NCBI GenBank assembly: GCA_035559535.1
Contig: DATMBG010000042.1
Coordinates: 62,001-126,000 of the forward strand
Direction: 5' to 3'
Length of the DNA: 64,000 bases
DNA from: Candidatus Limnocylindrales bacterium
Lineage (GTDB): Bacteria > Moduliflexota > Moduliflexia > Moduliflexales > JAUQPW01
Shown here one piece after another: positions 938 through 44,104 of this stretch. The position numbers and the translations under genes were made by a program. The notes beneath the pieces were generated by a model. The model saw nothing but the letters and a program-made list of their open reading frames with translations. It was not told the origin of the DNA and searched no databases. Each line of letters starts with the position of its first letter. Within the stretch, counting starts at the first letter, position 1.

Positions 938-3328
938 ATGTTAGAATTTTTGAAAAAGCTCCTGGCATTACCCCTAACCTCGATGGTGAGAACACTTGTT
1001 GTTTGGGGTTTTATTGATCTTTCGAAATTAGAAAAAGAGCTGAAAAGTGAACTCATCAAAGGATTGACCCTGATGACCCCGGATAATGCCCAATTGTACC
1101 ATTCAATCCAGCAAGAGTTGGCCGAGCATAAGCGGACGGAAGAACAGTTACAACAACGCATTGAGCAACTTCAGAGTATTTACCATCTCAACAGTGCCAC
1201 CAGCCGTGCAGAAGTTCTCGAAGAGATCTACACCGAAGCTCTGAACGCTTTGCAACGTACGTTGAAGGCGGATCGGGCTTCGGTGTTACTATTTGATCCG
1301 GATGGCATCATCCGCTTTAAAGCCTGGAGAGGACTTTCCGATAACTACCGAAAAGCTGGAGAAGGTCATTGTCCGTGGTCACGCCACGAAAAGAACCCAC
1401 AGCCGATCCTGGTTCCTGATGTGGAAAAGGAGCCGAGTTTGCAGTCTCTCCGACCCGCCATTTTAAAGGAGGGCATCCGGGCTCTCGGTTTCATTCCCCT
1501 GGTGTATCAAGGTCAGTTGTTAGGGAAATTTATGATTTATTATAACACCCTGCATGAGTTCACCGATGAGGAAGTTCAGTTGGCGCAAACCATCGCCAGT
1601 CATATTGCCTTTGCCATAGAGCGCAAGCGGGCGGAGGATGCGTTGCGAGAGAGTGAAGAACGATATGCCCTTGCTGCCCGTGGGGCTAACGATGGACTGT
1701 GGGATTGGAATTTGAAAACTGGTGAGATCTATTACTCTCCCCGTTGGAAGTCGATGCTCGGTTATGAGGAAAACGAGATCAAAAATAGCCTCGAGGAGTG
1801 GTTTAGCCGGGTGCATCCTGAGGACATTGAAAATTTAAAGGCACGAATCGATTTACATCTGGAAGGCCTCACTCCCTTTGAAAACGAACATCGGATGAAA
1901 CATAAGGACGGAACTTACCGCTGGATGCTAAGTCGAGGACTTGCAGTTCGAGATGCAGAAGGGAAGGCTTATCGCATGGCCGGTTCTCAGACCGATATTA
2001 CCGACCGTAAGGTGGCCGAAATGCAACTCTTGCATGATGCGTTTCACGATGCCTTAACAGGCCTACCCAATCGAGCTCTGTTCATGAATCGCCTGGAGCA
2101 TGCAACCGAGCGTTCAAAACGCCGTCAGAATTATCAGTTTGCGGTCCTCTTTCTGGACCTGGATCGCTTTAAGGTTGTTAATGATAGTCTGGGCCATCTG
2201 GCCGGAGATCAGCTCCTTGTTGAGATTGCTCGAAGGTTGGTGGAGTGTTTGCGCCCTGGAGATACCGTTGCCCGTCTGGGGGGAGATGAGTTTGCCATCC
2301 TTCTCGATGGGATCGAAAGTCTTAATGATGCCATTCGTGTTTCGGACAGGATCCAAAAAGAACTGATGTCCCCCTTCAATTTAAATGGACAGGAGGTCTG
2401 TACAACCACCAGCATAGGGATTGCGCTAAATACCATAGGGTATATCCAACCCGACGATCTTCTACGGGATGCCGATATTGCCATGTATCGGGCCAAAGCG
2501 CTGGGTAAGGCAAGGTATGCCGTGTTTGATGCCGGTATGCATACACGGGCTGTGGAACTCTTACACCTGGAGGCCAGCCTTCGACGAGCTATCGAACAGC
2601 AGGAGTTTCGACTTTATTACCAACCCATCCTATGTTTGAAAAGTGGTAAGATAACCGGAGTTGAGGCGCTCCTACGCTGGCAACACCCTCAGCGGGGTCT
2701 TATCTCTCCAGGGGAGTTTATCCCGGTTGCGGAAGAAACCGGATTGATTGTGGCCATCGGGGAATGGGTAATACAAACGGCATGCACACAAAGTAAAGCC
2801 TGGCAAGATATGGGCCTACCCCCACTCTTCGTGGCCATAAACCTGTCGGCTCGCCAGTTTCAGCATCAAAATTTGCTGGAGTTGATCAAAAAGATCCTTA
2901 AAGAGACGGGTATGGCTGCTCAAACCCTTAAACTGGAAATTACCGAAAGTATTGCCATGAGAGATCTCGATTTCAGCATCCCGATATTAAAAGAATTGAG
3001 TGCCATGGGAGTCCAGATCTTAATAGATGATTTTGGTACCTGTTATTCTTCACTGGGTTATTTAAACCGCTTTCCCATTAACGCCTTAAAAATTGATCAG
3101 TCTTTTGTGAAGGATATCCCAAACAATGCGGATAATGCGGCCATTATCAAAGCCATTATTGCCATGGCCCATAGTCTCAAGTTGAAAGTGATCGCCGAGG
3201 GAGTGGAAACCGAAGAACAGTTAACCTTTTTACGCTCGCAAGCCTGTGACGAGATCCAAGGTTACTTACTCAGCCACCCACTCCCTGCTGAGGTGTTTGC
3301 ACGCCTGTACCCCACCTTTTCCCTCTAA
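938..3328 (+). CDS. GAF-PAS/PAC-GGDEF-EAL diguanylate cyclase/phosphodiesterase (start uncertain)
   Basis: GAF region; PAS (GLWDWNL...HPED); HDALTGLPNR; RPGD I-site followed by GGDEF; VEALLRW; LEITE; IDDFGTCYSSL; AEGVE. Confidence 0.96.
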   Translation: MLEFLKKLLALPLTSMVRTLVVWGFIDLSKLEKELKSELIKGLTLMTPDNAQLYHSIQQELAEHKRTEEQLQQRIEQLQSIYHLNSATSRAEVLEEIYTEALNALQRTLKADRASVLLFDPDGIIRFKAWRGLSDNYRKAGEGHCPWSRHEKNPQPILVPDVEKEPSLQSLRPAILKEGIRALGFIPLVYQGQLLGKFMIYYNTLHEFTDEEVQLAQTIASHIAFAIERKRAEDALRESEERYALAARGANDGLWDWNLKTGEIYYSPRWKSMLGYEENEIKNSLEEWFSRVHPEDIENLKARIDLHLEGLTPFENEHRMKHKDGTYRWMLSRGLAVRDAEGKAYRMAGSQTDITDRKVAEMQLLHDAFHDALTGLPNRALFMNRLEHATERSKRRQNYQFAVLFLDLDRFKVVNDSLGHLAGDQLLVEIARRLVECLRPGDTVARLGGDEFAILLDGIESLNDAIRVSDRIQKELMSPFNLNGQEVCTTTSIGIALNTIGYIQPDDLLRDADIAMYRAKALGKARYAVFDAGMHTRAVELLHLEASLRRAIEQQEFRLYYQPILCLKSGKITGVEALLRWQHPQRGLISPGEFIPVAEETGLIVAIGEWVIQTACTQSKAWQDMGLPPLFVAINLSARQFQHQNLLELIKKILKETGMAAQTLKLEITESIAMRDLDFSIPILKELSAMGVQILIDDFGTCYSSLGYLNRFPINALKIDQSFVKDIPNNADNAAIIKAIIAMAHSLKLKVIAEGVETEEQLTFLRSQACDEIQGYLLSHPLPAEVFARLYPTFSL

Positions 3329-3338
3329 CCCTGGTTTC

Positions 3339-5465
3339 TCAACTCACCGAAGTACTCAGGGGTTGAGTCCGTTTGCAGCCATCTCGATATACCGCGACCG
3401 CTTTAAGCCCCATCTTCCAGGCCTCCATATATACCTGCCAGATGTCTTCAGGGGTCGCCTCCTGGGGCATATTAATGGTTTTGGACACTCCCCCCGACAA
3501 GAAAGGCTGAACGGCCCCTAACATCTTGAGATGACCGCTATAATGGATGGATCGGGTTCCTTTTGAGGGTTTGAACGCACAGTCAAAGACGGCAAGATGC
3601 TCCGGTTTTAGCCCCGGGGCTCCTTCAATGGTATCGTTCTGATCGATATACTCAACGATGGCGTGGATCTGCTCTGTAGAATAGCCCAACTTTTTCAAAG
3701 CCTCCGGAACCGTCCGGTTGACTATTTTGATTAAACCTCCCCCTGCCAGTTTTTTATATTTAACCAGACTGATATCCGGCTCCACCCCGGTGGTATCACA
3801 ATCCATGTAAAATCCTATAGTCCCTGTAGGAGCTAAAAGGGTGACCTGGGCATTCCGATACCCATACCGCTGGCCCATGCGATAAGCATCCTCCCAAACC
3901 TGTTCGGCCACCTCTATTAAAGATCGAGATATCTCTAGGCGGTCTATTTTAGCCAGATAAGAAATGTGTTTTTTAATGACCTTTAACATGGGTTCCCGAT
4001 TTACGGCATACTCCTGGAAGGGACCGAGTTCTCTGGCGATCATGGCAGAGGTTTTATAAGCCTGCCCACTCATGAGGGCTGTAATAGCTCCGGCATAAGC
4101 CCGGCCGGCATCGCTGTCATAGGGGAGACCCTCCGACATCAGAAGCGCTCCTAAATTGGCATATCCCAACCCCAGGGGACGAAATTTCTGGCTATTTCCC
4201 TGGATGGTTTGGGTGGGATAGCCGGAATTACCGACCAGGATCTCCATGGCGATGGTCATGATACTTACCACATGGCAGAACCCTGCTACATCCCAAGAAC
4301 CTTCATGGCGAAATTTCATTAGGTTTAGAGACCCCAGAATACAGGCCGAATTATCCAAAAACATGAATTCACTACAGGAGTTGGAAGCCTGAATACGACC
4401 GGAAGCCGGACAGGTATGCCAGTCATTGATGGTGGTATCGAATTGTAAACCGGGATCCCCACAGATATAGGCTGAATCCACGATCCGCTTCATTAGATCT
4501 CGAGCTGAATAGGTATCCACAACCTCGCCGGTAGTCACGGCCCGGGTTTGCCATTTCTTATCCTGTAAGACAGCCCACATAAAATCATCTGTAACCCGAA
4601 CGCTGTGGTTTGCGTTCTGAAAAGCCACCGTGTCATAGGCTCCACCGGACACATTAAATTCTCCGTTGTACCCGGCTTCGATGAGCGCCCAGGCTTTTTT
4701 CTCTTCATTGGCCTTGCAGTCGATAAATTCCAAAATATCCGGGTGATCTATATTCAAAATGGCCATCTTAGCGGCACGGCCTGTACGACCGCCACTTTTT
4801 ATGATACCCGCCATGGTATCACACCCCCGCATGAAGGAAACCGGTCCACTGGATTTACCACCTCCGGAGAGCTTCTCCTTAGAGGAACGTAAGGTAGAGA
4901 AATTGGTCCCGGTACCCGATCCATATTTAAAAAGTATTCCCTCTGTTTTAATGAGATCTAAAACCGACTCCAGAGTATCCTCCACAGAGTTGATAAAAGA
5001 TCCCGAACATTGGGGATGCTCTTCAATTCCTACGTTGAACCATACTGGGCTATTAAAAGCGGCTTTCTGATGAACTAAAATATGACAGAGTTCGTGGTAG
5101 AAGGTTTCGGCATCTTCACAGGAAGTAAAATACCCATCTTTAAGACCCCAATCCGTGATGGTTCGAGCAACACGATTAATCAAACTCTTGACACTCCGCT
5201 CTCGCCGGGGAGTTCCTAAAGCTCCATAAAAATATTTTCGTATGACTACATTGGTTGCCGTCTGAGACCAAAATTTCGGAACCTCCACCTCTCTCTGCTC
5301 AAAAATCGTTTCACCTTTTTCATCGGTAAAGCTGGCCACCCGGAGTTCCCATTCTACTTCCTCAAAGGGATGCACCTCCGGGGTGGTGTAAAATCTCTTT
5401 ATCTTTAAGCCCCTGGTTTTCGTTGAAATCGATGGAACTTCTCTATTTTTCATGGTTTTCAACAT
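3339..5465 (-). CDS. nrdJ: Class II (adenosylcobalamin-dependent) ribonucleotide reductase homolog, C-terminally short, with altered active-site motifs
   Basis: FNSPVWFN, SGPVSFM, NxCxE (ASNSCSE), RPLGLGYANLG, LLAPTGTI, VSKTIN, GLKAVAVYRDG; ends at QPLSTSVS. Confidence 0.9.
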   Translation of the reverse strand: MLKTMKNREVPSISTKTRGLKIKRFYTTPEVHPFEEVEWELRVASFTDEKGETIFEQREVEVPKFWSQTATNVVIRKYFYGALGTPRRERSVKSLINRVARTITDWGLKDGYFTSCEDAETFYHELCHILVHQKAAFNSPVWFNVGIEEHPQCSGSFINSVEDTLESVLDLIKTEGILFKYGSGTGTNFSTLRSSKEKLSGGGKSSGPVSFMRGCDTMAGIIKSGGRTGRAAKMAILNIDHPDILEFIDCKANEEKKAWALIEAGYNGEFNVSGGAYDTVAFQNANHSVRVTDDFMWAVLQDKKWQTRAVTTGEVVDTYSARDLMKRIVDSAYICGDPGLQFDTTINDWHTCPASGRIQASNSCSEFMFLDNSACILGSLNLMKFRHEGSWDVAGFCHVVSIMTIAMEILVGNSGYPTQTIQGNSQKFRPLGLGYANLGALLMSEGLPYDSDAGRAYAGAITALMSGQAYKTSAMIARELGPFQEYAVNREPMLKVIKKHISYLAKIDRLEISRSLIEVAEQVWEDAYRMGQRYGYRNAQVTLLAPTGTIGFYMDCDTTGVEPDISLVKYKKLAGGGLIKIVNRTVPEALKKLGYSTEQIHAIVEYIDQNDTIEGAPGLKPEHLAVFDCAFKPSKGTRSIHYSGHLKMLGAVQPFLSGGVSKTINMPQEATPEDIWQVYMEAWKMGLKAVAVYRDGCKRTQPLSTSVS

Positions 5466-5631
5466 GCTATGACCCTCCTGTTAAGGGACGGTCTGGGCCC
5501 TTCTTCCATTTCGAGAAGGAAAACTCGGACCCACTTATTTGCTAAAAAAATCAGGATCTGCTAAGGAAATTAGGAAGGCCAATAGGAAAGGAACAAGAGA
5601 AAGAGAGACGGAAGATCCTATTGTTGCTTCG

Positions 5632-5731
5632 CTATTTCCTTCGGCAACCCTTCTACCATAGTGTAAATAACACCTTAGGCAGTGGCTTTCCGTCCCGCTC
5701 TTTCGAGTGGTTTGGCTTTATCGAGAAATAA
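5632..5731 (-). ncRNA. Cyclic di-GMP-I (GEMM-I) riboswitch upstream of nrdJ
   Basis: Minus strand reads TATTTCTCGATAAAGCCAAACCACTCGAAAGAGCGGGACGGAAAGCCACTGCCTAAGGTGTTATTTACACTATGGTAGAAGGGTTGCCGAAGGAAATA: P2 with GAAA tetraloop, GGGACGGAAAGCC junction, CCTAA...ATGG receptor, GGTTGCCGA end. Confidence 0.9.
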
Positions 5732-5829: not shown

Positions 5830-6411
5830 ATGATAAAATAAGTTTAATTAAGTTATTTTAGCCTCCCTAAGGAGAAAAAACCCAGGAGGTTGTCTTCTAA
5901 AAAACTGAAAATTCTTGCGGTTTTAAAACTTTATTTGTGGCAAAGAAACCACCGAATTTCTCCTGGAATCGGAATTAAAGTCCTATGCAGGAGAGGTAAC
6001 CCCATCTATGAAAATTATTTCAACCTTCTTCAAAACAGGAAGTTAACGGGTCAGACCTACGATTTTAGGCTACAGGACAGGAAATATCATCGCCTCCTCC
6101 TCCTTGCCCCACTTTTCAGGGATAGTTTTCTTCTAACCTCCTTTCCTTGCAGGGAAGAGGAATCGAAGGGGTTAGATCCCAAAAGTCTTCCTCCTCTTCC
6201 GAAGTTTCTAGATGAAGGAGGGGTGAGATACAGACCGGTCTTTTAAAGTATCTCTGGACCGGTTTCCCTCAGGCTGTTGTACTTGTGACAAAGAACCCTT
6301 ATATTAACATCAGGTGGGGAAGTTATCCGTTGGGGAATAGAAGGATTATAGGAAATCTGACGGGACTTTACCAACCTTTTAGATGGATCCTCAGGGTCAA
6401 CAAACTGTTTT

Positions 6412-7218
6412 ATGCAGGTTCATTTTTTAATCGAGAAAGGCTCCGGCCCCCTTAATGAAGATAATCTGGTCATAACCCAAAATATTTTTGGAGTCTTCGA
6501 TGGCGTAACCAGCCTGGATAATTACAGAGATCCCCACGGGAATACAGGCGGATTGCTTGCTTCCCGTATTGCCAAAAGGGTTTTTGAAAAAGGGGGTAAA
6601 CCCCTGGTCGATCTGGCCCTGGAAGCAAATTCTCTCCTCAGAGAGGAAATGCTCAAACATGGAATAGATCTTTCTAAAAAGGTCAGTTTATGGGGCACTA
6701 CCGCAGCCGTGATCCAAATCAACCGGGATACCTTCGATTGGATACAAATCGGGGACAGTCCAATCCTGGTCCTTTACGATAAGAATTCCTACAAACTGCT
6801 TGTGGAGGACTACGACCATGATCGGGAGACCCTCATTCTCTGGAAAGAACTGGCAGATAAGAAGATCAAAAATATCCGGGAATTTCTTTTGGAACCCTTA
6901 CAGAAAGCAAGGGAAAAAGCCAATGTTTCCTACGGTGTCCTTAACGGGGAAAGGGAGATGATCGGGTTCTTAAATCGAGGTACAGAAGATTTAGAAAATG
7001 TGAAACATATCCTTGTTTTTACCGATGGGTTGTTTATTCCCCAGGAGAACCCCCGGCATAAAGATCCTTTGGGTCTACTGGTAAGTCTCTTTTTAGAGGG
7101 GGGTCTAGAAAGGATAAGAGACTACGTAAGGGAAAGAGAAAAAAGCGATCCAGAATGTTGGAAATATCCGAGGTTTAAGCCCCACGATGATATAGCAGCT
7201 GTTTCGATTTCTTTTTAA
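6412..7218 (+). CDS. PP2C-like (PPM family) phosphatase domain protein
   Basis: NED, VFDGV, GTT, IGDS, FTDG and HDD motifs. Confidence 0.8.
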   Translation: MQVHFLIEKGSGPLNEDNLVITQNIFGVFDGVTSLDNYRDPHGNTGGLLASRIAKRVFEKGGKPLVDLALEANSLLREEMLKHGIDLSKKVSLWGTTAAVIQINRDTFDWIQIGDSPILVLYDKNSYKLLVEDYDHDRETLILWKELADKKIKNIREFLLEPLQKAREKANVSYGVLNGEREMIGFLNRGTEDLENVKHILVFTDGLFIPQENPRHKDPLGLLVSLFLEGGLERIRDYVREREKSDPECWKYPRFKPHDDIAAVSISF

Positions 7219-13954: not shown

Positions 13955-15121
13955 TCAGAGACGCCTGGAACGTCCGATGACTTTCCGAAGGGGAATTAAA
14001 ATCCATCGACCGTAGCCGGCGAGGCAGGAAAAAACGCCCAGAAGAGGAACAAGAAACCAGGTACGAAGCGGGGTATATTCTTCGTAGGTGTCGTAACGGA
14101 CTATTTTTCGTTGGGAAAGTATGATGGATTTCAAACTTGTGTAGAAGGTGGAACTCTCTTCCACGTAGTAATATGAACCTCCTCCGGCTACCGCCATCCG
14201 ACGCAGGATCTCTTCATCCAATGAGGAAGTTTGGATAGAACTGGTAGGGTCGTCGGGGTTTGTTCGGTAGTAACTCACCACACGTCCCTTCTCATCCTGG
14301 GTCTTTACCAATAGCACCTCCTCGGCATGACGTACACCCAGGGCGTCTTCTTTTATTTTTCCTATTCCGACCGTATAGAGGAGAATACGAGGATTCTTGG
14401 TATGAAGGTCATTTATTCTGCGAATCGCTTCGAGGCGATTTTGCTCCGAACCCCCTTCCTTGCCCCCATCGGAGATTAAAATCCCCACATCCGTGGTATC
14501 GGAATCCGCAGGAAATCGCGAAAGAAGATCTTCCCACGCGACGATTGCGGCCTGAAGGCTTGTACCCGGTACATCGATGGTATTTTCGTCTACGGCCTGA
14601 ATATAGGAGGTAATTTCGTAAGGACTCGTTGAGAAAAGAAAGGAGGTTGGAAATGCCGCACCGGCAAAGGGGATAACGGCCACCTGATAATTGCCACCGA
14701 TTTCCTCATTGCTCCAGAGGAAATCCACCAGATCTTGAAGGGTTTTTTTGGCAACGGCAAGACGACTTGGCTCCAGATCCCGTGCATAAGCCATGGACAG
14801 GGAGGTATCCAGGAGAAAGGTGATACGGATGCCGGTAAAAACAGGTTTCTCCTGAATCTTTTTTTTCATGGGTTCGGCAAGGACCATCAGGAAGAGCAGA
14901 TAGACTATACAGTATAAGATCCATCGGGTAACGACAACCCTTCTCTTCGGGAGGGTGGAACCTCTGAGATGCATCTGGATCCAGGGGTCTGCTAATACCT
15001 GCTCACGCTTCCGGTACGCGTACCAGGCACCCAGAAGAATCAAGGGGATCAGTATACTTCCCCACAGCCATTCAGGTTTTTGGAATATCACGCTCCAGGG
15101 CCCTTTTTCCCCGTCCTCCAA
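13955..15121 (-). CDS. Membrane-anchored vWA protein (MxaL/BatB-like); start may be GTG 15091
   Basis: FQKPEWLW N-terminus with two TM segments; MIDAS DTSLS...GTS...ISDG; DLEPSRLAVAK; LDEEILRRMAVAGGGSY; C-terminal TM. Confidence 0.85.
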   Translation of the reverse strand: MEDGEKGPWSVIFQKPEWLWGSILIPLILLGAWYAYRKREQVLADPWIQMHLRGSTLPKRRVVVTRWILYCIVYLLFLMVLAEPMKKKIQEKPVFTGIRITFLLDTSLSMAYARDLEPSRLAVAKKTLQDLVDFLWSNEEIGGNYQVAVIPFAGAAFPTSFLFSTSPYEITSYIQAVDENTIDVPGTSLQAAIVAWEDLLSRFPADSDTTDVGILISDGGKEGGSEQNRLEAIRRINDLHTKNPRILLYTVGIGKIKEDALGVRHAEEVLLVKTQDEKGRVVSYYRTNPDDPTSSIQTSSLDEEILRRMAVAGGGSYYYVEESSTFYTSLKSIILSQRKIVRYDTYEEYTPLRTWFLVPLLGVFSCLAGYGRWILIPLRKVIGRSRRL

Positions 15122-15154: not shown

Positions 15155-15934
15155 TTAATGGGTTCTTCCGGCAGGTACATCATTCATCTGGATTTTCTCA
15201 TTGGGGCGTTGAGGCAACATTTTCAGGATGATCTGTCGTTGTTGCGTGCTATCTCCTGTGAGGGAACCGGCTTTCTCCAAAGCCTTTTGGTTTTGTTCCA
15301 AGAGTTCAAGGGCCGTCTGGGCATTGCGATCTTTTGGTAGGTAAGCGAGGACTTTCTTGAGTTTGCTCCGCGCAACTTCGGTGAAATCGGAGAGTTTGGT
15401 GGCATCCTCTCCGGCAAAGATAGATCTTTCCACAGCAAATAAGGCAAACCGGTACAACCACTGCGCGGTTAAGATGGGATCATCGAAAGTTTCAGGAAGA
15501 AGCGCTACAACCCCATCTGCTTTTGTTGCCATGTCCATGGCCTCATTTAAATATCTCTTGGCCTCGGGGTGATTTTTGCTGTAAAGGAGGAATTGTTGTG
15601 CTCTGGCGACCTTTTTTTCCATTTGGAGCATGTAGCTTTCTGCAAGTTTTGCCATAAGCAGATTCTTGATACGAGCCTGTTCTTTCTCCTCTATCACCCT
15701 AGAGAGTTTGGGGAATTGATCTTTCAGGATCGCTTCCCAGGCTTCAGGAGAAGAAGCTTTTTTCATCTCGTCATTTATTTCACGGATTAAGGCCTCTATT
15801 TCCTTTTGTTCCTCGACCACACGCCTTTGATATAAGGCTTCTTCACGGGCACGTTTCTGCATCGCCTGTTTTATCCAAAAGCCCTCGCCGAGAAAAAGTA
15901 TTGTAAGAATGGTATAGATTATTAACCGTCCCAT
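15155..15934 (-). CDS. Helical/TPR-like protein with N-terminal anchor (MxaK/BatC-like)
   Basis: N-terminal TM, helical character, PKDRNAQTALELL resembling the P.D..A..NLE motif; lies between two vWA genes. Confidence 0.55.
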   Translation of the reverse strand: MGRLIIYTILTILFLGEGFWIKQAMQKRAREEALYQRRVVEEQKEIEALIREINDEMKKASSPEAWEAILKDQFPKLSRVIEEKEQARIKNLLMAKLAESYMLQMEKKVARAQQFLLYSKNHPEAKRYLNEAMDMATKADGVVALLPETFDDPILTAQWLYRFALFAVERSIFAGEDATKLSDFTEVARSKLKKVLAYLPKDRNAQTALELLEQNQKALEKAGSLTGDSTQQRQIILKMLPQRPNEKIQMNDVPAGRTH

Positions 15935-16027
15935 AAAAGGATTGTAATCCTGGGTCAGAAGTCCGGAGCCAGAACTTTCTCTTTCTTTGCTTTGATTTCC
16001 GGCTTTTGACCTCCGGCTATAAGGCTG

Positions 16028-17317
16028 TTATATCTCTCCGGTAAGTGAACGGGCAAAGGTATATTCTGCAATCCCCCAGCAGAGAAAAAAGACGAACCCT
16101 GCCAATATAAACCATCGACTATACGAAGCACGTTTTGGGATTTGTATAGTGGTGAAGTGATTGAGATGTTTTTCAAAAATTTCCTTTACTGCCTGTTCCA
16201 TATTAACCAAGGGGTCGTCCTTTCGTACCAGAAGGAAATCCCCGCCGGTTTCTTGCGCTGCCAATTTAAGTTGGACAAGAAAATTTTCGATGGAGATAAA
16301 ATAAATGGGAAGCTTTAAATAAGCCGCAAACTCCAATAATTTCCAGAGAGAGGGATCCCGGGTTTCGAAAGACTTCAGGTCGTCATAGACTGCGTCAGTA
16401 AAAATCAAGATGGTCCATTCCTGGATTTTCGGTTGGATAGAACTCATTTTTTTGCTAAGTTCAGGAGGAAGTACAAAGTGTCCGCTTTGAGGTCGCAAAG
16501 CTTTCCTGAGGAGATTCATTTCATCTTCTGTAAAAATAGATTCCCTGGCTACCCTTAGGGCCTGTTCTAAGCCTGTGGAAGGGACGAACGCGGAGCCTGT
16601 AGGAGGAAGAAGTGTTGGATTGGTCGACGGGGTATTTGGCTCTGAGGCATAGCGAAAGATGAGGTTTGAAAGGGCTGCATAGAAAGCGATATGAATGTTG
16701 GTGTCTCCTCCCAGAATCACCGGACTCCACTCGAAACGCTCGACCTGATCTCGGAGCCTTCGGTAATCGGTACTTGGAAAAAGAATCACGGCAGGGTCTC
16801 GGGCAAAGGCCATAAGGGAGATAAGCGGTTTCTTTTTTTGATAGGGAGAGAGGGCTGCTGCTTCGGTCATATCCACGAATTTCTTAAGGGCACGGCACAT
16901 CCCTTTCATTCTTGGATATAGCTCGATTTCCTCTTCAGCCAGGCAGGTAATGGGTTTTACTCCGGGATAGACATTCAGGGTCTTGCGCTCAAACATGGAA
17001 CCTGAGGAATCCACCAGCAGGAGTATGTTGGGAGTTTCCAGTTTTTCTTCAGTCCAGAAATAGCCATGGGTAATCTCCGCAAGGGCCAGGATCACCGATA
17101 GGTAGGTCAGGGTCTTAAAAACCGTTGGAAGTACGAAGTGGATCCGACTTTGCCATTGCCTGAGTCGTTCACGGAAGGTCAGGTACTCCGGCTTTACATG
17201 GAGGTGTGCTTTTTGAAGCGCATAACGACGTACCCTGAAGAGGAATTCAACCAAAACAACAGGTAAGAGTAATAACCATTCAGGGTGTGAGGCTTCATAT
17301 CCAAATATTTCAAACAT
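16028..17317 (-). CDS. Membrane-anchored vWA protein (MxaC/BatA-like)
   Basis: HPEWLLLLP N-terminus; MIDAS DSSGS...GDT...FTD; LAAQETGGDF; C-terminal TM. Confidence 0.85.
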   Translation of the reverse strand: MFEIFGYEASHPEWLLLLPVVLVEFLFRVRRYALQKAHLHVKPEYLTFRERLRQWQSRIHFVLPTVFKTLTYLSVILALAEITHGYFWTEEKLETPNILLLVDSSGSMFERKTLNVYPGVKPITCLAEEEIELYPRMKGMCRALKKFVDMTEAAALSPYQKKKPLISLMAFARDPAVILFPSTDYRRLRDQVERFEWSPVILGGDTNIHIAFYAALSNLIFRYASEPNTPSTNPTLLPPTGSAFVPSTGLEQALRVARESIFTEDEMNLLRKALRPQSGHFVLPPELSKKMSSIQPKIQEWTILIFTDAVYDDLKSFETRDPSLWKLLEFAAYLKLPIYFISIENFLVQLKLAAQETGGDFLLVRKDDPLVNMEQAVKEIFEKHLNHFTTIQIPKRASYSRWFILAGFVFFLCWGIAEYTFARSLTGEI

Positions 17318-17335
17318 GGCTGGCTTCCTTCAAAC

Positions 17336-19003
17336 CTAGGATCCCATTTTCAGACGCTTCAGGGACATAATCAAGGACTTGACATCGGAGGTTAATCGGG
17401 TCAGCGTCTCTTCTTGAAGGGTAAAATTCGGCCGGTAAACCTTCTCTAACTCCCTATAGATTGTTTTAAGGAGGTCACGTTCCTTTTCATCTAACCGACT
17501 GCCACAGTTTTCCATCACTTCGCCAAGTCCTGGGTGGGGGCTTAACTCACCGGGAAAGAGGTTTTTCAATGCCAGGGAGAGGGCCTCATAGACCTTTTCA
17601 TAACTTTCGAGGGAAGGATGTTGCTGGGCTTCATTTAAAAGCTGCATACAGACCTCTTGCCAGGGTTTTTCAAGGGGTCCGCGAGGAATCTGTCGATTCC
17701 TCTGTTGCAAGAGGGTTCTCCCCCTTACCAGGCTGGCGATACCGAATAGACCTGCCAGGATAAACGAGGCATAGGAGAGTAAGACAGGTCTAAATGGGAG
17801 CTTGGCTATAAAGGGAATAGAATCCAGTCTGGAGGATGAGATAAAAGGAGCAGCGGGAAGGGGAGTAACCTGAATTTCAGGAACAGTCAGCAAAGTTGCC
17901 GGAGGAAATGAGGTTACAACTCCTGCAAGATGGGAAATTACAAAGAAGTTGGCAATATTGGTAGTAATCGTCTTTAACTCTCCATTCTCGGTAAAGTTAA
18001 TAGGAGGCCCAGAAATTACCCACTTTCCAACGGAATCGGTACCTGTAGCCTGTACTTCAAAAAGGCGCAACTTCCAGGTCAGGGTTACGATCTCTCCAGA
18101 TCCATTACGAACTCTGTTGACCTCGGGTTCTGGAGAAACCTCAAAATATCTGGCCTTACCTCCACTGACAGGTTTAGGAATAAACTCTGCACTTCCCAAA
18201 GGGGAAATCAGTTTAGGATCTATCTGAATCCGCTCTGGAGCAAAATTTTGAATGATCAAAGAAACCGTCCTGACCTCATCTAACTGCCCGGTTTCGGGAG
18301 TGACCTTAAGTTCCGCAATAACTGGGGGGTGAAGATAATGAAATCTGGGATAGGCACGACGTACCCATGAGTCGGTGGCGGCAAGATTTACAAGGCGTAA
18401 AAGCGTTAAGGGGGGTTTAATTTCCGAAAAAGAAATGTGAAAGGTACTGTTCTCGGATACGGTTACGGCTCCAACTGTAAAGTCACCATATTTTTTCAAC
18501 TCTTGAAGGATATGCTCCTGTAAATCCTGGACTGAAAAGAATTCCTTGGGTTCGATCACCATCCCCGTCATTTCTGCTGCAATCCCATGGACCAGGTAGA
18601 CGAACTCAGCACGGGCAACCTCAGAGGTGTTGATAAGATTTACAGCCTCTACGATCTTTGCCGGAGGAATCGTTTCCTCAAACTGGACAAACCATCGATT
18701 CGTCGGCATATTCCAGTTCATTTCCGGTTTATATTCACGAAGAGGAAACCCTGAAAGGGTTTTTGAGAGAAATTCCTCTTGTTTTTCCGGTAGTGCGTAA
18801 GAGAGTGTAAATTGAACAATGATTCTCGGTGCAAGCTCTAATGGCTCCCGCACGTTAACATCCTCGGTGTACGAATACATCTCCCCTAAACTGATGGCAG
18901 GATAAGCCTGACATTCCAGCCCGGCAAGCATCCAGAATGTAAACAAACTCAGCAGGCTAAGACCCATGGTGAAAAGAAGAAGGACTTGCTTTGGCATTCT
19001 CAT
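17336..19003 (-). CDS. Exported single-pass membrane protein (MxaA/BatD-like architecture)
   Basis: Signal peptide, large beta-rich region, TM (VLLSYASFILAGLFGIASLV), helical tail; GAGGAG RBS; first gene of the vWA cluster. Confidence 0.6.
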   Translation of the reverse strand: MRMPKQVLLLFTMGLSLLSLFTFWMLAGLECQAYPAISLGEMYSYTEDVNVREPLELAPRIIVQFTLSYALPEKQEEFLSKTLSGFPLREYKPEMNWNMPTNRWFVQFEETIPPAKIVEAVNLINTSEVARAEFVYLVHGIAAEMTGMVIEPKEFFSVQDLQEHILQELKKYGDFTVGAVTVSENSTFHISFSEIKPPLTLLRLVNLAATDSWVRRAYPRFHYLHPPVIAELKVTPETGQLDEVRTVSLIIQNFAPERIQIDPKLISPLGSAEFIPKPVSGGKARYFEVSPEPEVNRVRNGSGEIVTLTWKLRLFEVQATGTDSVGKWVISGPPINFTENGELKTITTNIANFFVISHLAGVVTSFPPATLLTVPEIQVTPLPAAPFISSSRLDSIPFIAKLPFRPVLLSYASFILAGLFGIASLVRGRTLLQQRNRQIPRGPLEKPWQEVCMQLLNEAQQHPSLESYEKVYEALSLALKNLFPGELSPHPGLGEVMENCGSRLDEKERDLLKTIYRELEKVYRPNFTLQEETLTRLTSDVKSLIMSLKRLKMGS

Positions 19004-19722
19004 GATGATATCTCCTCATGGGATTTTTGACCCTTCTGAGAGAGAGAATTATTTTTAAATCTACTCTCTTCTACGTTGGTGTCAAGGGTCTGACAGAATT
19101 TAATCTTATCCCTATTCAAGGACCTGGATTGGACTTTCTCCTTGACCTTCACCCCTATAGAATTTATCCTCTCAGAAAAAGAGATTAAAAGCAAGAGATT
19201 TCTTAAAATTTGTAACTGTAACAATTTAGTAGGTGTCACTTTTTCTGTCTGAACACCCCCCTGGCCCCCTCCAGGAGGGACTGATATGGGGTTGCTACTG
19301 CTGAAGTCCCCCCCTAGGAGGACCAGGGGAGTGTTTCTTTTTCCATCGGATTTGATCCTTCCGCTTTTGATAAGTTTATGAATCGCCATACGAGTTACAT
19401 CCTGCAGATCCACCGCTTCTGTGACCTTCCTCAAATCGTCTTGAGATTCCATGAAAAAACGATCTACACCTATAAAGTAGATCAGTCAAGGAAATTTTTC
19501 ACAAAAGCGCAAGAACGGGGTTGTAGGGGCATCTTCACACCTGCGTAATTTTTTTATTGACGACGCCAGATAAAGGTGTAAAACTCCCTCCTGAATTTTT
19601 ACCACATATCCTCAGGCGGGTTTAAAACCCGTTCCTACGTTGGACTCAACCTAGACGTTTCTCTGACTCCGAACCCGCGACGGAAAGGACGTCGGGGGAG
19701 TCAGTGATACAGGGAGGATCAC

Positions 19723-27804: not shown

Positions 27805-28362
27805 TTAGGGTTCCCAGATCGTTTCCGGTTGACCGGCTCGTTGGTTAACCAGGCGAGCCAGGACGAAAAGCAAATCTGAAAGTCGGTTTAGATACTTAAT
27901 GATTTCCTTATTGATGTCGTGGTTCTGTGCCAGGGTCACCACGCGACGCTCCGCCCGGCGGGAGACCGTTCTGGCAAAATGGAGGTAGGCCGCGCCGGGA
28001 GTCCCACCCGGTAAGATAAAGCGGGTCAAGGGAACCAGTTCCGCTTCGCATTGATCGATCCATTCTTCTAATCGGGTTATCTGTTCCGGTACAATACGGG
28101 GTATGGGTTTTCGAGCTTCCAGCTTTGGTTGGTTAAAGGGAGTTGCCAGATCCGCACCTACCTTAAATAGTTCCGATTGAATGTTCTCCAGGATATTTCG
28201 AATTTGGGTATCGGTTATAAAGGATACGGCCAGTCCCAAAACCGAATTAAGCTCATCTACGGTTCCGTAGGCTTCCACATAGGGGGAATCTTTCAGAACA
28301 CGTTCCCCACCGAATAAACCTGTTTCCCCTTTATCTCCGGTTCGTGTGTAGATTTTCATCAT
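27805..28362 (-). CDS. Cob(I)alamin adenosyltransferase, PduO type
   Basis: [40 protein letters not shown]. Confidence 0.95.
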
Positions 28363-29252
28363 GGGATTTTAATGTCCAACAACTCCCGGTGTTGGTTGAC
28401 CTGCTCATCGGCATGATAGGAGCTTCTAACAAGAGGACCGGATTCCACATGCCGGAATCCCATCTCTTCCCCTCGAGCTTTTAGCATTTTGAACTCATCC
28501 GGGTGGTAGTATCGAACAACCGGGAGATGTTGTTGGGAGGGTTGGAGGTATTGACCTAAGGTTAAAATGTCACACTGCACCCCACGTAAATCTGACATCA
28601 CCGCATAAACTTCTTCGATGGTTTCTCCGAGGCCCAGCATAATTCCAGTTTTGGTTACAAACCCCTGGGTTTTGGCCCTTCTTAACACCTCCAGGCTCTG
28701 TTGATAGTTCGCCTGAGGCCGAACTTTACGATATAATCGAGGAACCGTCTCGACGTTATGAGCTAAGATATCCGGCCTGGCCGCTAAAACGGTCATCAAA
28801 GCTTCTTCAGAGCCTTTAAAATCAGGTATCAAAACCTCAAGGGTGCAGGTCGGGTTTGCCTGTCGAACCCGGCGAATGGTCTCGGCCCAGATAGAAGAAC
28901 CTCCATCCTTCAGTTCATCCCGATTAACCGAGGTTATCACCACATGCTTCAGTCCAAGTTTACGAATTGCCTCGGCGACCCGCCGGGGTTCGTCCCAGTC
29001 TACTCCCAGCGGTCGACCGGTCGGTACATCACAAAAACCGCAACTCCGGGTGCAAATATTCCCCAGAAGCATAAAGGTAGCAGTTCTCCGATTCCAACAT
29101 TCCCCAATATTGGGACAGCTGGCACTCTCACAAACCGTGTGGAGCTTGTGGTCTCGAACCAGCTTTTTAAGCTCAAAGAAATTTTCACCTTGAGGCATCC
29201 GAACCTTGAGCCAGGGTGGATGCTTCCTTGCTTTAGGTGGACTTATTTCCAT
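28359..29252 (-). CDS. lipA: Lipoyl synthase
   Basis: [24 protein letters not shown]. Confidence 0.98.
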
Positions 29253-31064: not shown

Positions 31065-32522
31065 TTACACGGCGAGCGTCATGGGATTTTCCAGAATTTT
31101 CTTCAATTCCTGTAAAAACTTGGCGGCGGTGGCGCCATCGGTAACCCGATGATCGCAGGATAGGGTCACTTTCATACGATGGCCGACTCGAATTTGGCCT
31201 TCCACCACCACCGGTTTTTCCTGGATCGAGCCGACGGCCAAGATAGCCCCTTCCGGGGGGTTAATAATTGCAGCAAAGTTCTCCACATCGTACATACCCA
31301 GATTGGAGATGGTAAAGGTACTACCGGTATATTCTTCGGGTTTTAATTTTTTCGATCGAGCCTTTTCGGCCAGATCTTTGGCTTCTCGGGCAATTTGCCC
31401 CAGGCTTTTAACCTCGCAATTTCGGATCACCGGGGTTATTAATCCATCTTCCAGAGCGACCGCTACACCGATATGGATTCCTTTATAAACTCTGATCTTA
31501 TCGCCTGCAAAGGAAGCATTCAATTGGGGATATTTCATAAGGGCTTTGGCTACGGCTTTAATAATCAGGTCGTTAAAGCTGATTTTAAGGTCTTCTTCCA
31601 GCTCGTTGACTAATTTGCGAAATTCCATCGCCTTCCCCATATCGATTTCTGATGTGATATAAAAATGGGGGACAGGCCCTTTGCTTTCGGCCATTCGTCT
31701 GGCGATGGTTTTTCGCATCATAGTCAACTCTTTTTCTTCGAATTCCGCAGGTGCAGGGGCAACCGGTACTTCGGGGGTAACTTCTATTTTTCCAGGCACC
31801 CATCGCGGTGGACGTTCTGGCTCATAAGAAGGTATTTTTTCGGCCCTTTCCATAAACATCTCGATATCCCGTTTGATCACCCGACCCAGGGGGCCACTTC
31901 CCTTTATTTGAGAAAGATCGAGTCCTAAGTTCTTGGCCATTCTTCGAGCCATGGGGGAAGCTTTAACATGTTCTGGCTCTTCTTCCATTTCCGTCAGTTC
32001 TTCAGCACTTCCAACTTCAGGTTTTTTAGCGGCTTCCATCTCGTCCGCTCTTCCCCCCTTCATTACTTCGAGGTGGCGTTTTTTCTCCCGTTCCCCTTCT
32101 TTGATTTTTTCTGGCTCTTCAAATTCTTCGGCCTCTTTAACTTGTGTTCTTTTCTCCTGCCTGGTCTCTACCACCTCGGCAGGTTTTTCAATTTCTCCAG
32201 CACCTCTCCTCGGGGTAGGACTTTCAGCTTTTCCGGCTTCTTTCTGCCCTTCTCCTCCGGGAAGTAAGCTGGAGATATCCTCATGGGGTTCTGCAATAAT
32301 TGCAATCAACTCCCCCACCGGAGCGGATTCCCCTTCCTTTTTAAGGATCTTTTTTAAAATCCCTGAGGCGTAGGCTTCCATTTCTAGATTGGCTTTATCT
32401 GTCTCGATCTCAGCGATGACGTCCCCGCTCTGAACTTTGTCCCCTTCTTTCTTCAGCCACTTGACAATCACCCCTTCCTGCATCGTATCGCTGAGTTTAG
32501 GCATTGTAACTTTACTTGCCAT
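31065..32522 (-). CDS. pdhC: Pyruvate dehydrogenase E2, dihydrolipoamide acetyltransferase
   Basis: One lipoyl domain (ETDKA), binding domain ASPMARR...GSGPLGRV, DHRVTDG. Confidence 0.96.
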   Translation of the reverse strand: MASKVTMPKLSDTMQEGVIVKWLKKEGDKVQSGDVIAEIETDKANLEMEAYASGILKKILKKEGESAPVGELIAIIAEPHEDISSLLPGGEGQKEAGKAESPTPRRGAGEIEKPAEVVETRQEKRTQVKEAEEFEEPEKIKEGEREKKRHLEVMKGGRADEMEAAKKPEVGSAEELTEMEEEPEHVKASPMARRMAKNLGLDLSQIKGSGPLGRVIKRDIEMFMERAEKIPSYEPERPPRWVPGKIEVTPEVPVAPAPAEFEEKELTMMRKTIARRMAESKGPVPHFYITSEIDMGKAMEFRKLVNELEEDLKISFNDLIIKAVAKALMKYPQLNASFAGDKIRVYKGIHIGVAVALEDGLITPVIRNCEVKSLGQIAREAKDLAEKARSKKLKPEEYTGSTFTISNLGMYDVENFAAIINPPEGAILAVGSIQEKPVVVEGQIRVGHRMKVTLSCDHRVTDGATAAKFLQELKKILENPMTLAV

Positions 32523-32605
32523 GTTTCTAGAGACCGGAGGCCGGAGGCTGGGGGTTTGTAAAGACTCCGATCCCCGACCTCAAGCCCCAAGTCTCAAGAT
32601 ATCTT

Positions 32606-33586
32606 TTAGTCAAAGTATAAGACCTTTTTGACGGCTTCTATAACCCTCGCTTTATTGGGTATAGTGGCCATTTCTAAATTCTTCGCATAGGGCATGGGAA
32701 CGTTTCTCGCTGCTACCCGCTCGATGGGAGCATCAATATAGTCAAAAGCCTTACGGTAGATAATCTCCGCAATCTGAGCCCCAAATCCTCCAAATTCCCA
32801 ACCTTCTTCAACAATCACCGCCCGGTTGGTTTTACGAACCGAGTTAAGAATTGTGGTTTCATCCAAGGGCCTCAAAGTCCGGGGATCTACAATTTCTACC
32901 TCAATACCCTCTTTAGCCAATTCTTCAGCCGCCTCCATAGCCAGGAGGACCATTTTGGAATAAGCTATAATGGTTACATCGCTCCCTTTTCTTTTGATAT
33001 CGGCTTTTCCAAGGGGAATGGTGTATTCTCCTTCAGGAACTTCCCCTTTCGTACCGTATAACAACTCCCCTTCGATAAAAATAACGGGATTATCATCCCG
33101 GATGGCACTTTTAAGTAAGCCTTTGGCGTCCTTAGGGACACCCGGCATAACGACTTTGAGTCCCGGGACATAACAAAACCAGGTTTCCAGGGAGTGGGAA
33201 TGCTGGGCTGCCAGTGAATGGGCAGCTCCTCCAGGGCCTCGGATCACCATGGGGATCTTAAACTGTCCTCCCGACATGTATCGAATCTTAGCCGCACTGT
33301 TTACAATCTGATCCATGGCCACGATAGAGAAATTAAAGGTCATCATTTCGATGACTGGTCTCAATCCTACCATAGCTGCACCGACTCCTACCCCGGTAAA
33401 GGCCTCTTCGGTGATAGGGGTGTCAATGACCCTTTTTTCTCCAAATTCTTCTAGTAAACCCTGGCTGACTTTATAGGCTCCTTGATAGAGACCTACCTCC
33501 TCTCCCATGAGAAAAACCCTTTCATCTCGACGCATTTCCTCTCGAAGAGCCTGGTTGAGTGCTTCTCGATAAGTTATAACCGGCAT
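32606..33586 (-). CDS. pdhB: Pyruvate dehydrogenase E1 beta subunit
   Basis: YREAL, GEEV, DTPITE, AAQHS, DPRTLRPLD; start reset to MPVIT. Confidence 0.96.
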   Translation of the reverse strand: MPVITYREALNQALREEMRRDERVFLMGEEVGLYQGAYKVSQGLLEEFGEKRVIDTPITEEAFTGVGVGAAMVGLRPVIEMMTFNFSIVAMDQIVNSAAKIRYMSGGQFKIPMVIRGPGGAAHSLAAQHSHSLETWFCYVPGLKVVMPGVPKDAKGLLKSAIRDDNPVIFIEGELLYGTKGEVPEGEYTIPLGKADIKRKGSDVTIIAYSKMVLLAMEAAEELAKEGIEVEIVDPRTLRPLDETTILNSVRKTNRAVIVEEGWEFGGFGAQIAEIIYRKAFDYIDAPIERVAARNVPMPYAKNLEMATIPNKARVIEAVKKVLYFD

Positions 33587-33661
33587 GTGGAAATACTCAG
33601 GCGTAAGGCGAAAGGTCAAGGAAACTTTTCCTTTCACCCTTCGCCTTGTCCCTTTCGCCTT

Positions 33662-34615
33662 TTAGGCGTAAACATCCTCATACAACCATTCTTCAGGTGG
33701 TTCCGGACTCTTTTCCGCAAACTCTACAGCTTCCTCCACGATGGCTTTAATCTCTTTTTCCATTTCTTCAAACTTCTCTTCGGAAAGAATCCCTTCCGCG
33801 ATGAGTTTCTGCTTAAAGGTGACAATAGGATCTCGTTTCCTTTGTTCGTTAACTTCCTCTTTTGTTCGATATTGAGCAGGATCCGACATGGAATGTCCCC
33901 GGAAGCGGTAGGTTCTAACTTCCAGAAAAGTAGGTATTTTTTCATGTCGGGCCCGTTCTACGGCTTTACCAACCTTCTCCCAAACCTCTAATACGTTCAT
34001 TCCATCCACAAGCTCGCCGGGAATATCGTAGGCTTTGGCCTTCAAGTACATCTCCGGACCGGCCATGGCACGGGTTACTGCAGTTCCCATTCCATAGAAG
34101 TTATTTTCACAGATGTAAATGACGGGAAGCTTCCACAAAGACGCTAAATTCAGAGATTCATGGAAAACTCCTGTATTTACAGCTCCATCTCCAAAAAAGC
34201 ACAACACAACCTGATCCTTCCCCTCGTAGTTGATAGCAAAGCCAACGCCTGTAGCCAGAGGAATATGTCCTCCTACGATGGCATGTCCCCCCAGGAAGTT
34301 TCTTTCCGCATCAAAAAGATGCATGGATCCACCCTTTCCACGTGAAATTCCCGTGGCCTTTCCAAAGAGCTCGGCCATGATCTTTCGAGGTTCGGTTCCT
34401 ATCGCCAAAGCATGTCCATGCTCCCGGTAAGAAGCTATCACATAATCATCCTTTCGAATGGCCGCAATAGCACCCACTGCTACCGCTTCTTGACCAATAT
34501 AGAGATGGCAAAATCCACCAATTTTACCCATCATATACATCTCTGCGGCTTTTTCTTCAAACCGCCGGATGAGTAACATCTGACGATACATTTCAATTAA
34601 TTTTTCACTGTCCAT
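33662..34615 (-). CDS. pdhA: Pyruvate dehydrogenase E1 alpha subunit
   Basis: GGFCHLYIGQEA, GKGGSMH, GDGA...ENN, YRFRGHSMSDP. Confidence 0.97.
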   Translation of the reverse strand: MDSEKLIEMYRQMLLIRRFEEKAAEMYMMGKIGGFCHLYIGQEAVAVGAIAAIRKDDYVIASYREHGHALAIGTEPRKIMAELFGKATGISRGKGGSMHLFDAERNFLGGHAIVGGHIPLATGVGFAINYEGKDQVVLCFFGDGAVNTGVFHESLNLASLWKLPVIYICENNFYGMGTAVTRAMAGPEMYLKAKAYDIPGELVDGMNVLEVWEKVGKAVERARHEKIPTFLEVRTYRFRGHSMSDPAQYRTKEEVNEQRKRDPIVTFKQKLIAEGILSEEKFEEMEKEIKAIVEEAVEFAEKSPEPPEEWLYEDVYA

Positions 34616-44094: not shown

Positions 44095-44104
44095 AAGGGG
44101 AAAA

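Follow-up and report, generated by a model that had tools for sequence, protein, structure and literature searches.

To our knowledge, ribonucleotide reductases (RNRs) have been treated as single-purpose enzymes with inviolable catalytic cysteines. In their active site, the cysteine at the position of T. maritima Cys134 is the direct hydrogen-atom donor, and it is also the one that class III enzymes retain. Inactive relatives are described elsewhere: betaherpesviruses carry catalytically dead homologues of the RNR large subunit (UL45/M45), and inactive paralogues of the "prozyme" type regulate an active partner. The pair formed by Cys134 and Cys333 in the T. maritima class II enzyme (NrdJ) is reportedly equivalent to the C225/C462 pair of E. 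coli (Larsson et al. 2004). This work concerns a natural nrdJ paralogue that is selectively maintained, has shed the reducing cysteine together with the electron-delivery tail and has kept the radical machinery. It lies downstream of a cyclic di-GMP (c-di-GMP) riboswitch in a 64,000-nt stretch, hereafter the window, from Candidatus Limnocylindrales bacterium (assembly GCA_035559535.1, contig DATMBG010000042.1, positions 62,001 to 126,000).

The closest described systems are the dimeric class II RNRs of the NrdJd type (S. nassauensis NrdJd, 7b9q). Class II tails consist of an IscU-like domain and a Zn finger, and around 40% of the tail-less, cysteine-free forms are the NrdJa chains of split enzymes, according to the excerpted text of PMC9669993. 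In the excerpts of PMC5704485, removal of the cysteine-rich domain from the S. nassauensis enzyme abolishes turnover with tris(2-carboxyethyl)phosphine (TCEP) and leaves activity with dithiothreitol (DTT); all six tail cysteines are required, and electrons can cross subunits in higher oligomers but appear to be transferred mainly within the same subunit in dimers. RNR active-site mutants commonly release base rather than reduce their substrate, as stated in the available part of PMC9026282, which cites work on C225S R1. The available parts of two RNR phylogeny papers (PMC9531940, PMC9669993) do not mention class II members without the cysteine, and the second mentions moonlighting by BORF2 of Epstein-Barr virus.

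The paralogue shares with the NrdJd type the fold, the N-x-C-x-E motif of the radical cysteine, the distal cysteine, the FNSP and APTGT loops, most of loop 1 and the N-terminal domain. It differs by a serine instead of the alpha-face cysteine, by NSC for NPC and CI for CN, by a glycine for the loop-2 arginine in five of the six members of its clade, by the deletion of the IscU-like/TSCPD and Zn-finger tail and by its c-di-GMP riboswitch control. It thus unites the lesions of two engineered enzymes: its tail is cut at the boundary used in NrdJd without the cysteine-rich domain (excerpts of PMC5704485), and its Cys-to-Ser change falls on the position altered in E. coli C225S R1. Those are artificial loss-of-function or suicide variants, whereas the paralogue is natural, evolves under purifying selection and has additional fixed second-shell changes. 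The split NrdJa + NrdJb enzymes of the Pseudomonas aeruginosa type also have a catalytic chain of about 700 aa without a cysteine-rich domain (PMC9669993 and PMC5704485, both in excerpt), but the paralogue has no separate NrdJb in its genome, no C-terminal docking domain and no complete set of active-site cysteines, the alpha-face one being missing. The likeness to UL45/M45 and to prozymes is that catalytic residues were lost in a conserved, repurposed protein and that an inactive copy stands beside an active one; unlike the paralogue, these examples belong to another RNR class, are viral or eukaryotic and have unrelated functions, and the paralogue keeps most of its catalytic residues. The riboswitch is a full-length aptamer of a known type (c-di-GMP-I or GEMM-I, RF01051) and differs from known cases in that the downstream gene is an RNR homologue.

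A preliminary description of this DNA, made from its letters alone, had recognized a class II RNR homologue with a rewired active site. The tail deletion, the riboswitch and two other intact NrdJ genes in the genome go beyond that description, and the tail deletion together with the loss of the redox cysteine is the strongest coherent signal at the locus.

Membership of the class II RNRs is well founded on domain content and on family hidden Markov models scoring above their curated cut-offs. The 10-stranded RNR barrel (PF02867) is matched with an E-value of 3.6e-131 (438.8 bits) and the class II N-terminal domain (PF08471) with 77.4 bits. NF005122, the NCBIfam equivalog of long B12-dependent RNRs, reaches 1152.5 bits (cut-off 859) over positions 10-711 of its 960, TIGR02504 reaches 559.3 bits (cut-off 399.95), and R. 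sphaeroides NrdJ (7b9q) is matched at E 3e-182. The 708-codon open reading frame (ORF) is uninterrupted in both genomes carrying the variant, its own (G000) and that of a sister species of the same genus (G001). The TSCPD/IscU-like domain and the Zn-finger cysteine tail are missing, the canonical proteins extending about 225 aa further. NrdJ from R. sphaeroides (7b9q) and from T. maritima (1xje) was crystallised as constructs that stop at this same boundary, so the paralogue amounts to an entire catalytic core that lacks the tail. With the convergent gene next to it ending at 3328, only 10 bp follow the stop codon of the paralogue, and no space is left for a tail remnant. The family NF005401 ("ribonucleotide reductase-like protein") was considered as a precedent and dropped: the clade member P0001 reaches 131.6 bits, short of the cut-off of 906, and no member above the cut-off was found in 61 genomes or 14 controls. 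An AlphaFold2 model from a 9-row alignment (mean predicted local distance difference test score 46.3, predicted TM score 0.34) was discarded.

Residue equivalences come from aligning the paralogue by phmmer with the crystallised T. maritima NrdJ (1xje/1xjk), and conservation was read from 102 full-length canonical relatives. Ser156, encoded by TCT at 4998-5000 (aga on the + strand), aligns to T. maritima Cys134. Asn362, Cys364 and Glu366 align to N320, C322 and E324, Cys375 aligns to Cys333 and Ile376 to Asn334. Cysteine at 156, arginine at 229, proline at 363 and asparagine at 376 are each found in 102 of the 102 canonical relatives, and the genome's own canonical NrdJ reads QCSACF, TRRAAK, ASNPCSEY and SACNLSS. 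The alpha-face redox pair (T. maritima C134 and C333) is therefore incomplete, Ser156 being present in all six clade members and Cys375 being kept. The N-x-C-x-E finger loop of the radical cysteine is intact in all six, with a serine for the intervening invariant proline, and the same holds for Cys375, the FNSP and APTGT phosphate loops and the last barrel strand. The P/F-N-S-P apical loop is the diphosphate type and APTGT the distal loop in the excerpted text of PMC8365446; all three NrdJ copies of the genome have the diphosphate-type (P/F)NSP loop.

These alignments bear out most of what the preliminary description had reported of the active site. Its four motifs (QCSGSF, TGRAAK, ASNSCSEF and SACILGS) are all where it had placed them in an intact frame of 708 aa, and the usual motifs that it listed are right for the subfamily. 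Its reading of the TCT codon as a replaced redox cysteine agrees with the T. maritima alignment, given the C225 equivalence cited above, and the radical motif and the distal cysteine remain as it had said. Its loop-2 change from arginine to glycine stands for this protein and for five of the six clade members, but it is not clade-wide, as P0006 keeps the arginine. It had also allowed that the upstream "QC" cysteine might occupy the C225 position; this cysteine, Cys153, falls on T. maritima Leu131. Of 114 canonical-type sequences (among 120 listed), 65 have cysteine at this position, 44 alanine and 5 valine, and P0006 reads QS there, so that this cysteine does not appear to be a candidate replacement for the lost one. 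One cysteine alone, C397, is common to all six clade members and lacking in the sister canonical proteins; it is not part of any catalytic motif, and 10 of the 102 canonical relatives have it as well.

All 14 positions of loop 2 are at least 95% conserved in the canonical relatives. P0001-P0005 have K227R, R229G and V235A there, the first and last lying close to Gly229, and their loop 1 follows the canonical consensus at conserved positions except for A205S, which is common to all six. P0006 retains Arg229 and its loop 1 carries T191R, K198T and G203N besides A205S. By these alignments, the specificity apparatus appears to be eroding by different routes in the two subclades. Elsewhere, P0005 has N159I and S160A straight after Ser156, and residue 359, an asparagine in canonical proteins, reads Q, R or H in the clade.

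The extent of deviation was counted over the 330 positions at which 99 canonical sequences show at least 95% conservation, a site being deviant when at least five of the six clade members depart from the consensus. By this count, 23 of the 330 sites are deviant in the variant clade versus 7 in the sister canonical group. Changes at fully invariant sites include C156S, R229G, P363S, N376I, A155G and F218M, the first four of which have negative BLOSUM62 scores. Sites within 5 residues of six catalytic and loop-2 anchors make up 7 of the 23 deviant sites versus 30 of the 307 other conserved ones (one-sided Fisher p = 0.008, post hoc). The clustering of changes asserted in the preliminary description holds in that sense, but it is modest in primary sequence, since p rises to 0.059 when the two index sites are left out (also post hoc). 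For Ser156, Ser363 and Ile376 alike, a single nucleotide separates the codon from its counterpart in the sister canonical gene, which is TGT in the case of Ser156.

Homology searches from P0001 and P0006 in a collection of 5.8 billion proteins listed 166 proteins in all. Among these, 158 are canonical in all three motifs, 2 missed one regular expression and 6 are variants; the second search, from P0006, brought no further clade member among those listed. The variants (P0001-P0006) are six protein clusters at 90% identity from several sources, 704-723 aa long, none with a TSCPD domain. Ser156, Ser363, Ile376, Phe367 and the truncation are common to all six, whereas Gly229 and Gly155 are found in five, P0006 (77% identical) retaining Arg229 and Ala155. 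Among 41 genomes (its own and 40 relatives), the variant is present only in G000 and G001, each of which also carries a canonical copy; seven genomes of the same order have only matches in long frames, at 62-65% identity. The 160 nearest NrdJ loci in metagenome and genome collections comprise 156 canonical ones, the G001 variant and 3 missed by the pattern. A metagenome scan with P0001 yielded canonical NrdJ loci alone (best 69% identity) and no variant. Long contigs from two more metagenome runs, belonging to two studies (X4 record 22 and X10 record 1), span the gene and its leader without gaps at about 94% identity. The variant clade is thus narrow, being made up of six protein clusters and two species genomes of uncultured bacteria. 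A separate observation concerns P0007, a partial protein of 626 aa with canonical motifs, which nevertheless outscores the canonical NrdJs against the paralogue region (520-532 bits, 65-67% identity). It ends in a second copy-like ...CGDPGIQYDTTINDW stretch, which could stem from misassembly or from an internal duplication.

In a maximum-likelihood tree of 35 sequences (quick search, LG+G4, support from the Shimodaira-Hasegawa-like approximate likelihood ratio test, SH-aLRT), the six variants form a group (100) whose sister is that of the canonical NrdJs from the same lineage (99); the two are joined with a support of 99. This placement points to a duplication within the family, and the paralogue appears to be lineage-specific, derived by recent duplication from the dimeric class II RNR that the lineage already had. 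The root-to-tip path of the variant clade is about twice that of the canonical one. Nonsynonymous (dN) and synonymous (dS) divergence was estimated by the Nei-Gojobori method for a single genome pair, G000 versus G001, giving a dN of 0.021, a dS of 0.251 and a dN/dS of 0.085 for the paralogue, and 0.011, 0.271 and 0.041 for the canonical core. By this measure the paralogue is under strong purifying selection, relaxed about twofold with respect to the canonical core, and a dN/dS of 0.085 indicates that the gene is not decaying. Variation within the clade spares the canonically conserved sites (32 of 330 vary, versus 144 of 358). The preliminary description had argued for functional divergence rather than random decay, and proposed looking for a clade sharing the SGSF/NSCSE-type changes. 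Such a clade exists, in six clusters with Ser156, Ser363 and Ile376 and in the genome of the sister species. Substitutions confined to this assembly and a neutral dN/dS, which it said would count against it, are not what was found. Its argument for functional divergence holds, and decay is rejected, whereas the possible new B12 thiyl-radical chemistry of its heading is not supported by these data; its interpretation is on the whole partly supported.

The genome of the paralogue (58 contigs, 95.8% complete) holds three RNR-barrel genes, encoding the 708-aa paralogue and canonical NrdJs of 933 and 608 aa. Over 689 aa, the paralogue and the 933-aa NrdJ are 75% identical with a single one-residue gap. 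The 608-aa gene lies just downstream of a 211-aa ORF fragment which, from its sequence alone, reads as the C-terminus of a hydrogenase large subunit. A search of this 95.8%-complete genome with PF12637 found no second TSCPD domain, the sole match being inside the canonical 933-aa NrdJ; the paralogue is therefore not part of a split NrdJa/NrdJb enzyme. The C-terminal re-reduction element, be it a cysteine-rich domain or a cysteine pair, is missing both in cis and as NrdJb. Since the tail was deleted together with the active-site redox cysteine, the whole path of reducing equivalents is gone, which favours a protein that no longer reduces.

In the 5' untranslated region of the paralogue, 175 nt upstream of its start codon, lies a c-di-GMP-I riboswitch aptamer, which is also found upstream of the G001 orthologue (75.6 bits). 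No Rfam match was found in the 5.5-kb locus of the canonical NrdJ, 1.4 kb upstream of the gene included. The nucleotide before P2 is a G and the one after P3 a C in the cmscan alignment; these are probably the equivalents of Vc2 G20 and C92, a column mapping that points to the c-di-GMP rather than the cyclic GMP-AMP (cGAMP) type. The roles of G20, of A20 in the cGAMP type and of C92 in ligand contact in Vc2 are given in the excerpted text of PMC6140456. A cGAMP-type riboswitch was set aside, given the G that presumably occupies the selectivity position when read against the Rfam structure line. Downstream of the aptamer, minimum-free-energy (MFE) folds predict a long terminator-like hairpin, whose basal 7 pairs join the aptamer 3' strand (5644-5650) to 5554-5561; the downstream part folded alone forms only the upper hairpin, 12 nt from the U-run. 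As ligand binding would block the base of the terminator, this element may compete with the aptamer and act as an ON switch. The 461-nt leader is 96% identical between G000 and G001, which is tighter than synonymous sites. The hairpin was not picked up by a simple terminator scan. None of the 19 runs listed for the locus is an RNA run. The genome contains four c-di-GMP-I riboswitches, counting this one. The other three (C30:2425-2511, C35:15231-15316 and C15:41031-41117, loci L186-L188; 65.6-73.2 bits) precede genes for a GAF-PAS-like signalling protein, a probable exported protein and a 391-aa frame of unknown type, as judged from translations.

Full-text literature searches, in which papers on nrdJ and c-di-GMP were judged by title and start of the abstract, found no c-di-GMP riboswitch linked to an RNR gene, and a search judged in the same way found no bacterial RNR pseudoenzyme. 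The riboswitch thus adds a link from a second messenger to the RNR family that was not found in the literature searched. Coordinates of the features discussed are given in Table 1.

Table 1. Features of the paralogue locus (window coordinates) and the canonical NrdJ genes of the same genome
Feature	Position	Strand	Basis or remark
nrdJ paralogue, 708 aa, class II RNR catalytic core without C-terminal domain	3339..5465	-	ORF, PF02867, PF08471, NF005122
C-terminal end ...RTQPLSTSVS and stop, right after the last barrel strand	3339..3368	-	Alignment with canonical paralogues
SACILGS, residues 373-379	4329..4349	-	Distal redox Cys375 kept; adjacent invariant Asn376 replaced by Ile
Finger loop ASNSCSEF, residues 360-367	4365..4388	-	N362, thiyl-radical Cys364 and E366 kept; Pro363 to Ser, Tyr367 to Phe
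Loop 2 TGRAAK, residues 228-233	4767..4784	-	Gly229 (codon 4779-4781) for Arg invariant in canonical NrdJ
Strand-A motif QCSGSF, residues 152-157	4995..5012	-	Ser156 for alpha-face redox Cys; Gly155 for invariant Ala
F-N-S-P apical phosphate-binding loop, diphosphate type, kept	5046..5057	-	FNSP in 6/6 clade members
Shine-Dalgarno AGGAGGG, 7 nt 5' of ATG at 5465	5473..5479	-	Read from sequence; identical in G001
Putative expression platform, terminator-like long hairpin then UGAUUUUUUU	5544..5650	-	MFE folds, pair list
c-di-GMP-I riboswitch aptamer in 5' untranslated region of paralogue	5640..5726	-	RF01051, 77.7 bits, gathering score 35, E 1.4e-13, full length 1-87/87
GAF-PAS-GGDEF-EAL c-di-GMP turnover protein, convergent neighbour (context)	938..3328	+	Pfam, NCBIfam
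Canonical NrdJ, 933 aa	contig C22		TSCPD domain and C-terminal Cys-rich tail, canonical motifs
Short NrdJ, 608 aa	L003:1192-3018, contig C41	+	Canonical SACF, NPCGE, CNLGS; C-terminal Cys pair

Several scenarios may explain a class II RNR of this kind. The one tentatively favoured here, which we hold to be possible rather than established, is a regulatory pseudoenzyme: a c-di-GMP-induced, non-reducing protomer that would bind nucleotide and/or adenosylcobalamin (AdoCbl) and act, most plausibly, through the canonical NrdJ. A duplicated NrdJ would have lost half of its active-site dithiol (Cys to Ser at T. maritima C134) and its C-terminal cysteine-rich domain. At high c-di-GMP, the ligand-bound riboswitch would sequester the 5' half of the terminator-like stem and the paralogue would be made; it would then bind nucleotides and/or AdoCbl and use the conserved alphaA/alphaB interface to pair with the canonical NrdJ, so that synthesis of deoxynucleoside triphosphates (dNTPs) would be tuned in the c-di-GMP-high (sessile) state. 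The residues lost suggest that reductase activity is probably gone, and heterodimerisation with the canonical NrdJ and the physiological role are put forward on the same conditional footing. What is kept under purifying selection comprises the fold, the radical loop, the distal cysteine, the phosphate loops for nucleoside diphosphates, most of effector loop 1 and the dimer-interface helices, and the two other intact NrdJ genes (933 aa with its tail, and 608 aa) appear to cover dNTP supply. The TCEP-supported turnover that tail-less S. nassauensis NrdJd loses, the base release by RNR active-site mutants, the lack of a replacement cysteine across the clade, the uneven erosion of the two specificity loops and the conserved riboswitch and leader likewise speak for this scenario. 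Several observations weigh against the pseudoenzyme. The radical triad, Cys375, FNSP/APTGT and the last barrel strand are intact in all six clade members under constraint relaxed only about twofold, a constraint tighter than binding or dimerising would seem to need, and one that a working radical enzyme would explain just as well. Ser156, Ser363 and Ile376 are clade-uniform despite being one nucleotide from the canonical codons, so the new residues could themselves be selected, an argument of little power with about three independent lineages. Electron transfer in NrdJd dimers is mainly within the same subunit (excerpts of PMC5704485), and a tail-less partner would therefore not obviously poison a canonical protomer. 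Finally, MFE folds are the sole source of the ON logic, and G001 has an interrupted U-run downstream of the hairpin. If the paralogue is a pseudoenzyme or regulator, it would be the first bacterial case and a handle on how lifestyle signals tune dNTP supply.

Alternatively, the paralogue could be a neofunctionalised AdoCbl-dependent thiyl-radical enzyme, which would abstract the 3'-hydrogen of a nucleoside diphosphate with a non-reductive outcome (2'-dehydration to a 3'-keto-2'-deoxynucleotide, base elimination or isomerisation) and have one preferred substrate. In that case four-way allosteric specificity would no longer be needed, which suits the erosion of loops 1 and 2. The N-x-C-x-E motif, Cys375, the phosphate loops and the last strand, kept in six of six members at a dN/dS of 0.085, speak for such an enzyme, even if the survival of catalytic residues in so young a paralogue (75% identity) is weak evidence. 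So do the clade-fixed, non-conservative C156S, P363S and N376I, which adjoin catalytic residues at sites invariant in 102 of 102 relatives, and the enrichment of deviant sites near the catalytic anchors (7/23 versus 30/307). As for the chemistry, that of the E. coli C225S R1 mutant is reportedly suicidal, inactivating the protein or cleaving it, and suicidal outcomes of this kind in laboratory mutants count against a maintained enzyme; that such active-site mutants show aberrant chemistry with base loss at all (excerpt of PMC9026282) counts for it. The locus has no co-transcribed partner genes for an unstable product, and no enzyme of the B12-RNR fold with another chemistry appeared in the literature searched, where no search was aimed at that point. 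Because the radical machinery is nearly complete and the second-shell changes uniform, this explanation, though unlikely, keeps real weight; if true, it would give the class II RNR fold a second chemistry for the first time, and c-di-GMP signalling a new output. That the paralogue is still a reductase, using Cys375 with an external reductant (a small molecule, or the tail of a canonical NrdJ in trans in a hetero-oligomer) as a c-di-GMP-induced RNR of the biofilm state, seems improbable. The cysteine it lacks is the C134 equivalent, and the loss of the loop-2 arginine in five members, with an altered loop 1 in the sixth, is unexpected for a general reductase of four substrates. In favour of such a reductase, formate-dependent class III RNRs function with one alpha-face cysteine. 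Precedents of another kind are the between-subunit electron transfer in mixtures of S. nassauensis NrdJd mutants and the activity of the tail-less enzyme with DTT (excerpts of PMC5704485), as well as the tail-less, cysteine-free class II C-termini present in databases (excerpts of PMC9669993). A decaying duplicate (a young pseudogene) or an artefact of assembly or binning is very improbable: the longer branch of the paralogue, about twice the canonical length, and the variation of several otherwise invariant sites within the clade would fit decay, but the frame of 708 codons is intact in two genomes with a dN/dS of 0.085 at a dS of 0.25, the riboswitch and leader are conserved, six clusters from different sources share the signature residues and the region of the truncation point, and long contigs in two more metagenomes cover the gene and its leader gaplessly.

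The paralogue is monocistronic, lying between the riboswitch and the convergent gene for the c-di-GMP turnover protein; in G001, a convergent frame of 815 aa occupies the same position, seen there as an open frame only. Divergent from the promoter region of the riboswitch are a 118-aa ORF at 5890-6246 (+), which matches no Pfam or NCBIfam family, and, at 6412-7218 (+), a weakly PP2C-like protein (PF13672, 24.5 bits; cut-off 24). A PduO-type cobalamin adenosyltransferase (PF01923, 9.5e-66) is encoded at 27805-28362 (-), 22 kb from the paralogue, and the organism is thus presumably able to make AdoCbl from cobalamin. This gene adjoins one for a lipoyl-synthase-like radical S-adenosylmethionine protein (28359-29252) and genes for the E1 and E2 components of a 2-oxoacid dehydrogenase (31065-34615). 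Elsewhere in the window, four consecutive ORFs of 259, 429, 555 and 150 aa at 15155-19452 (-) have no Pfam match at E <= 1e-5 and stand beside a gene for a VWA-domain protein at 13955-15121, and the frame at 44057-44998 (+) encodes a fusion of an exonuclease domain of the RNase T type with a WYL domain at the C-terminus.

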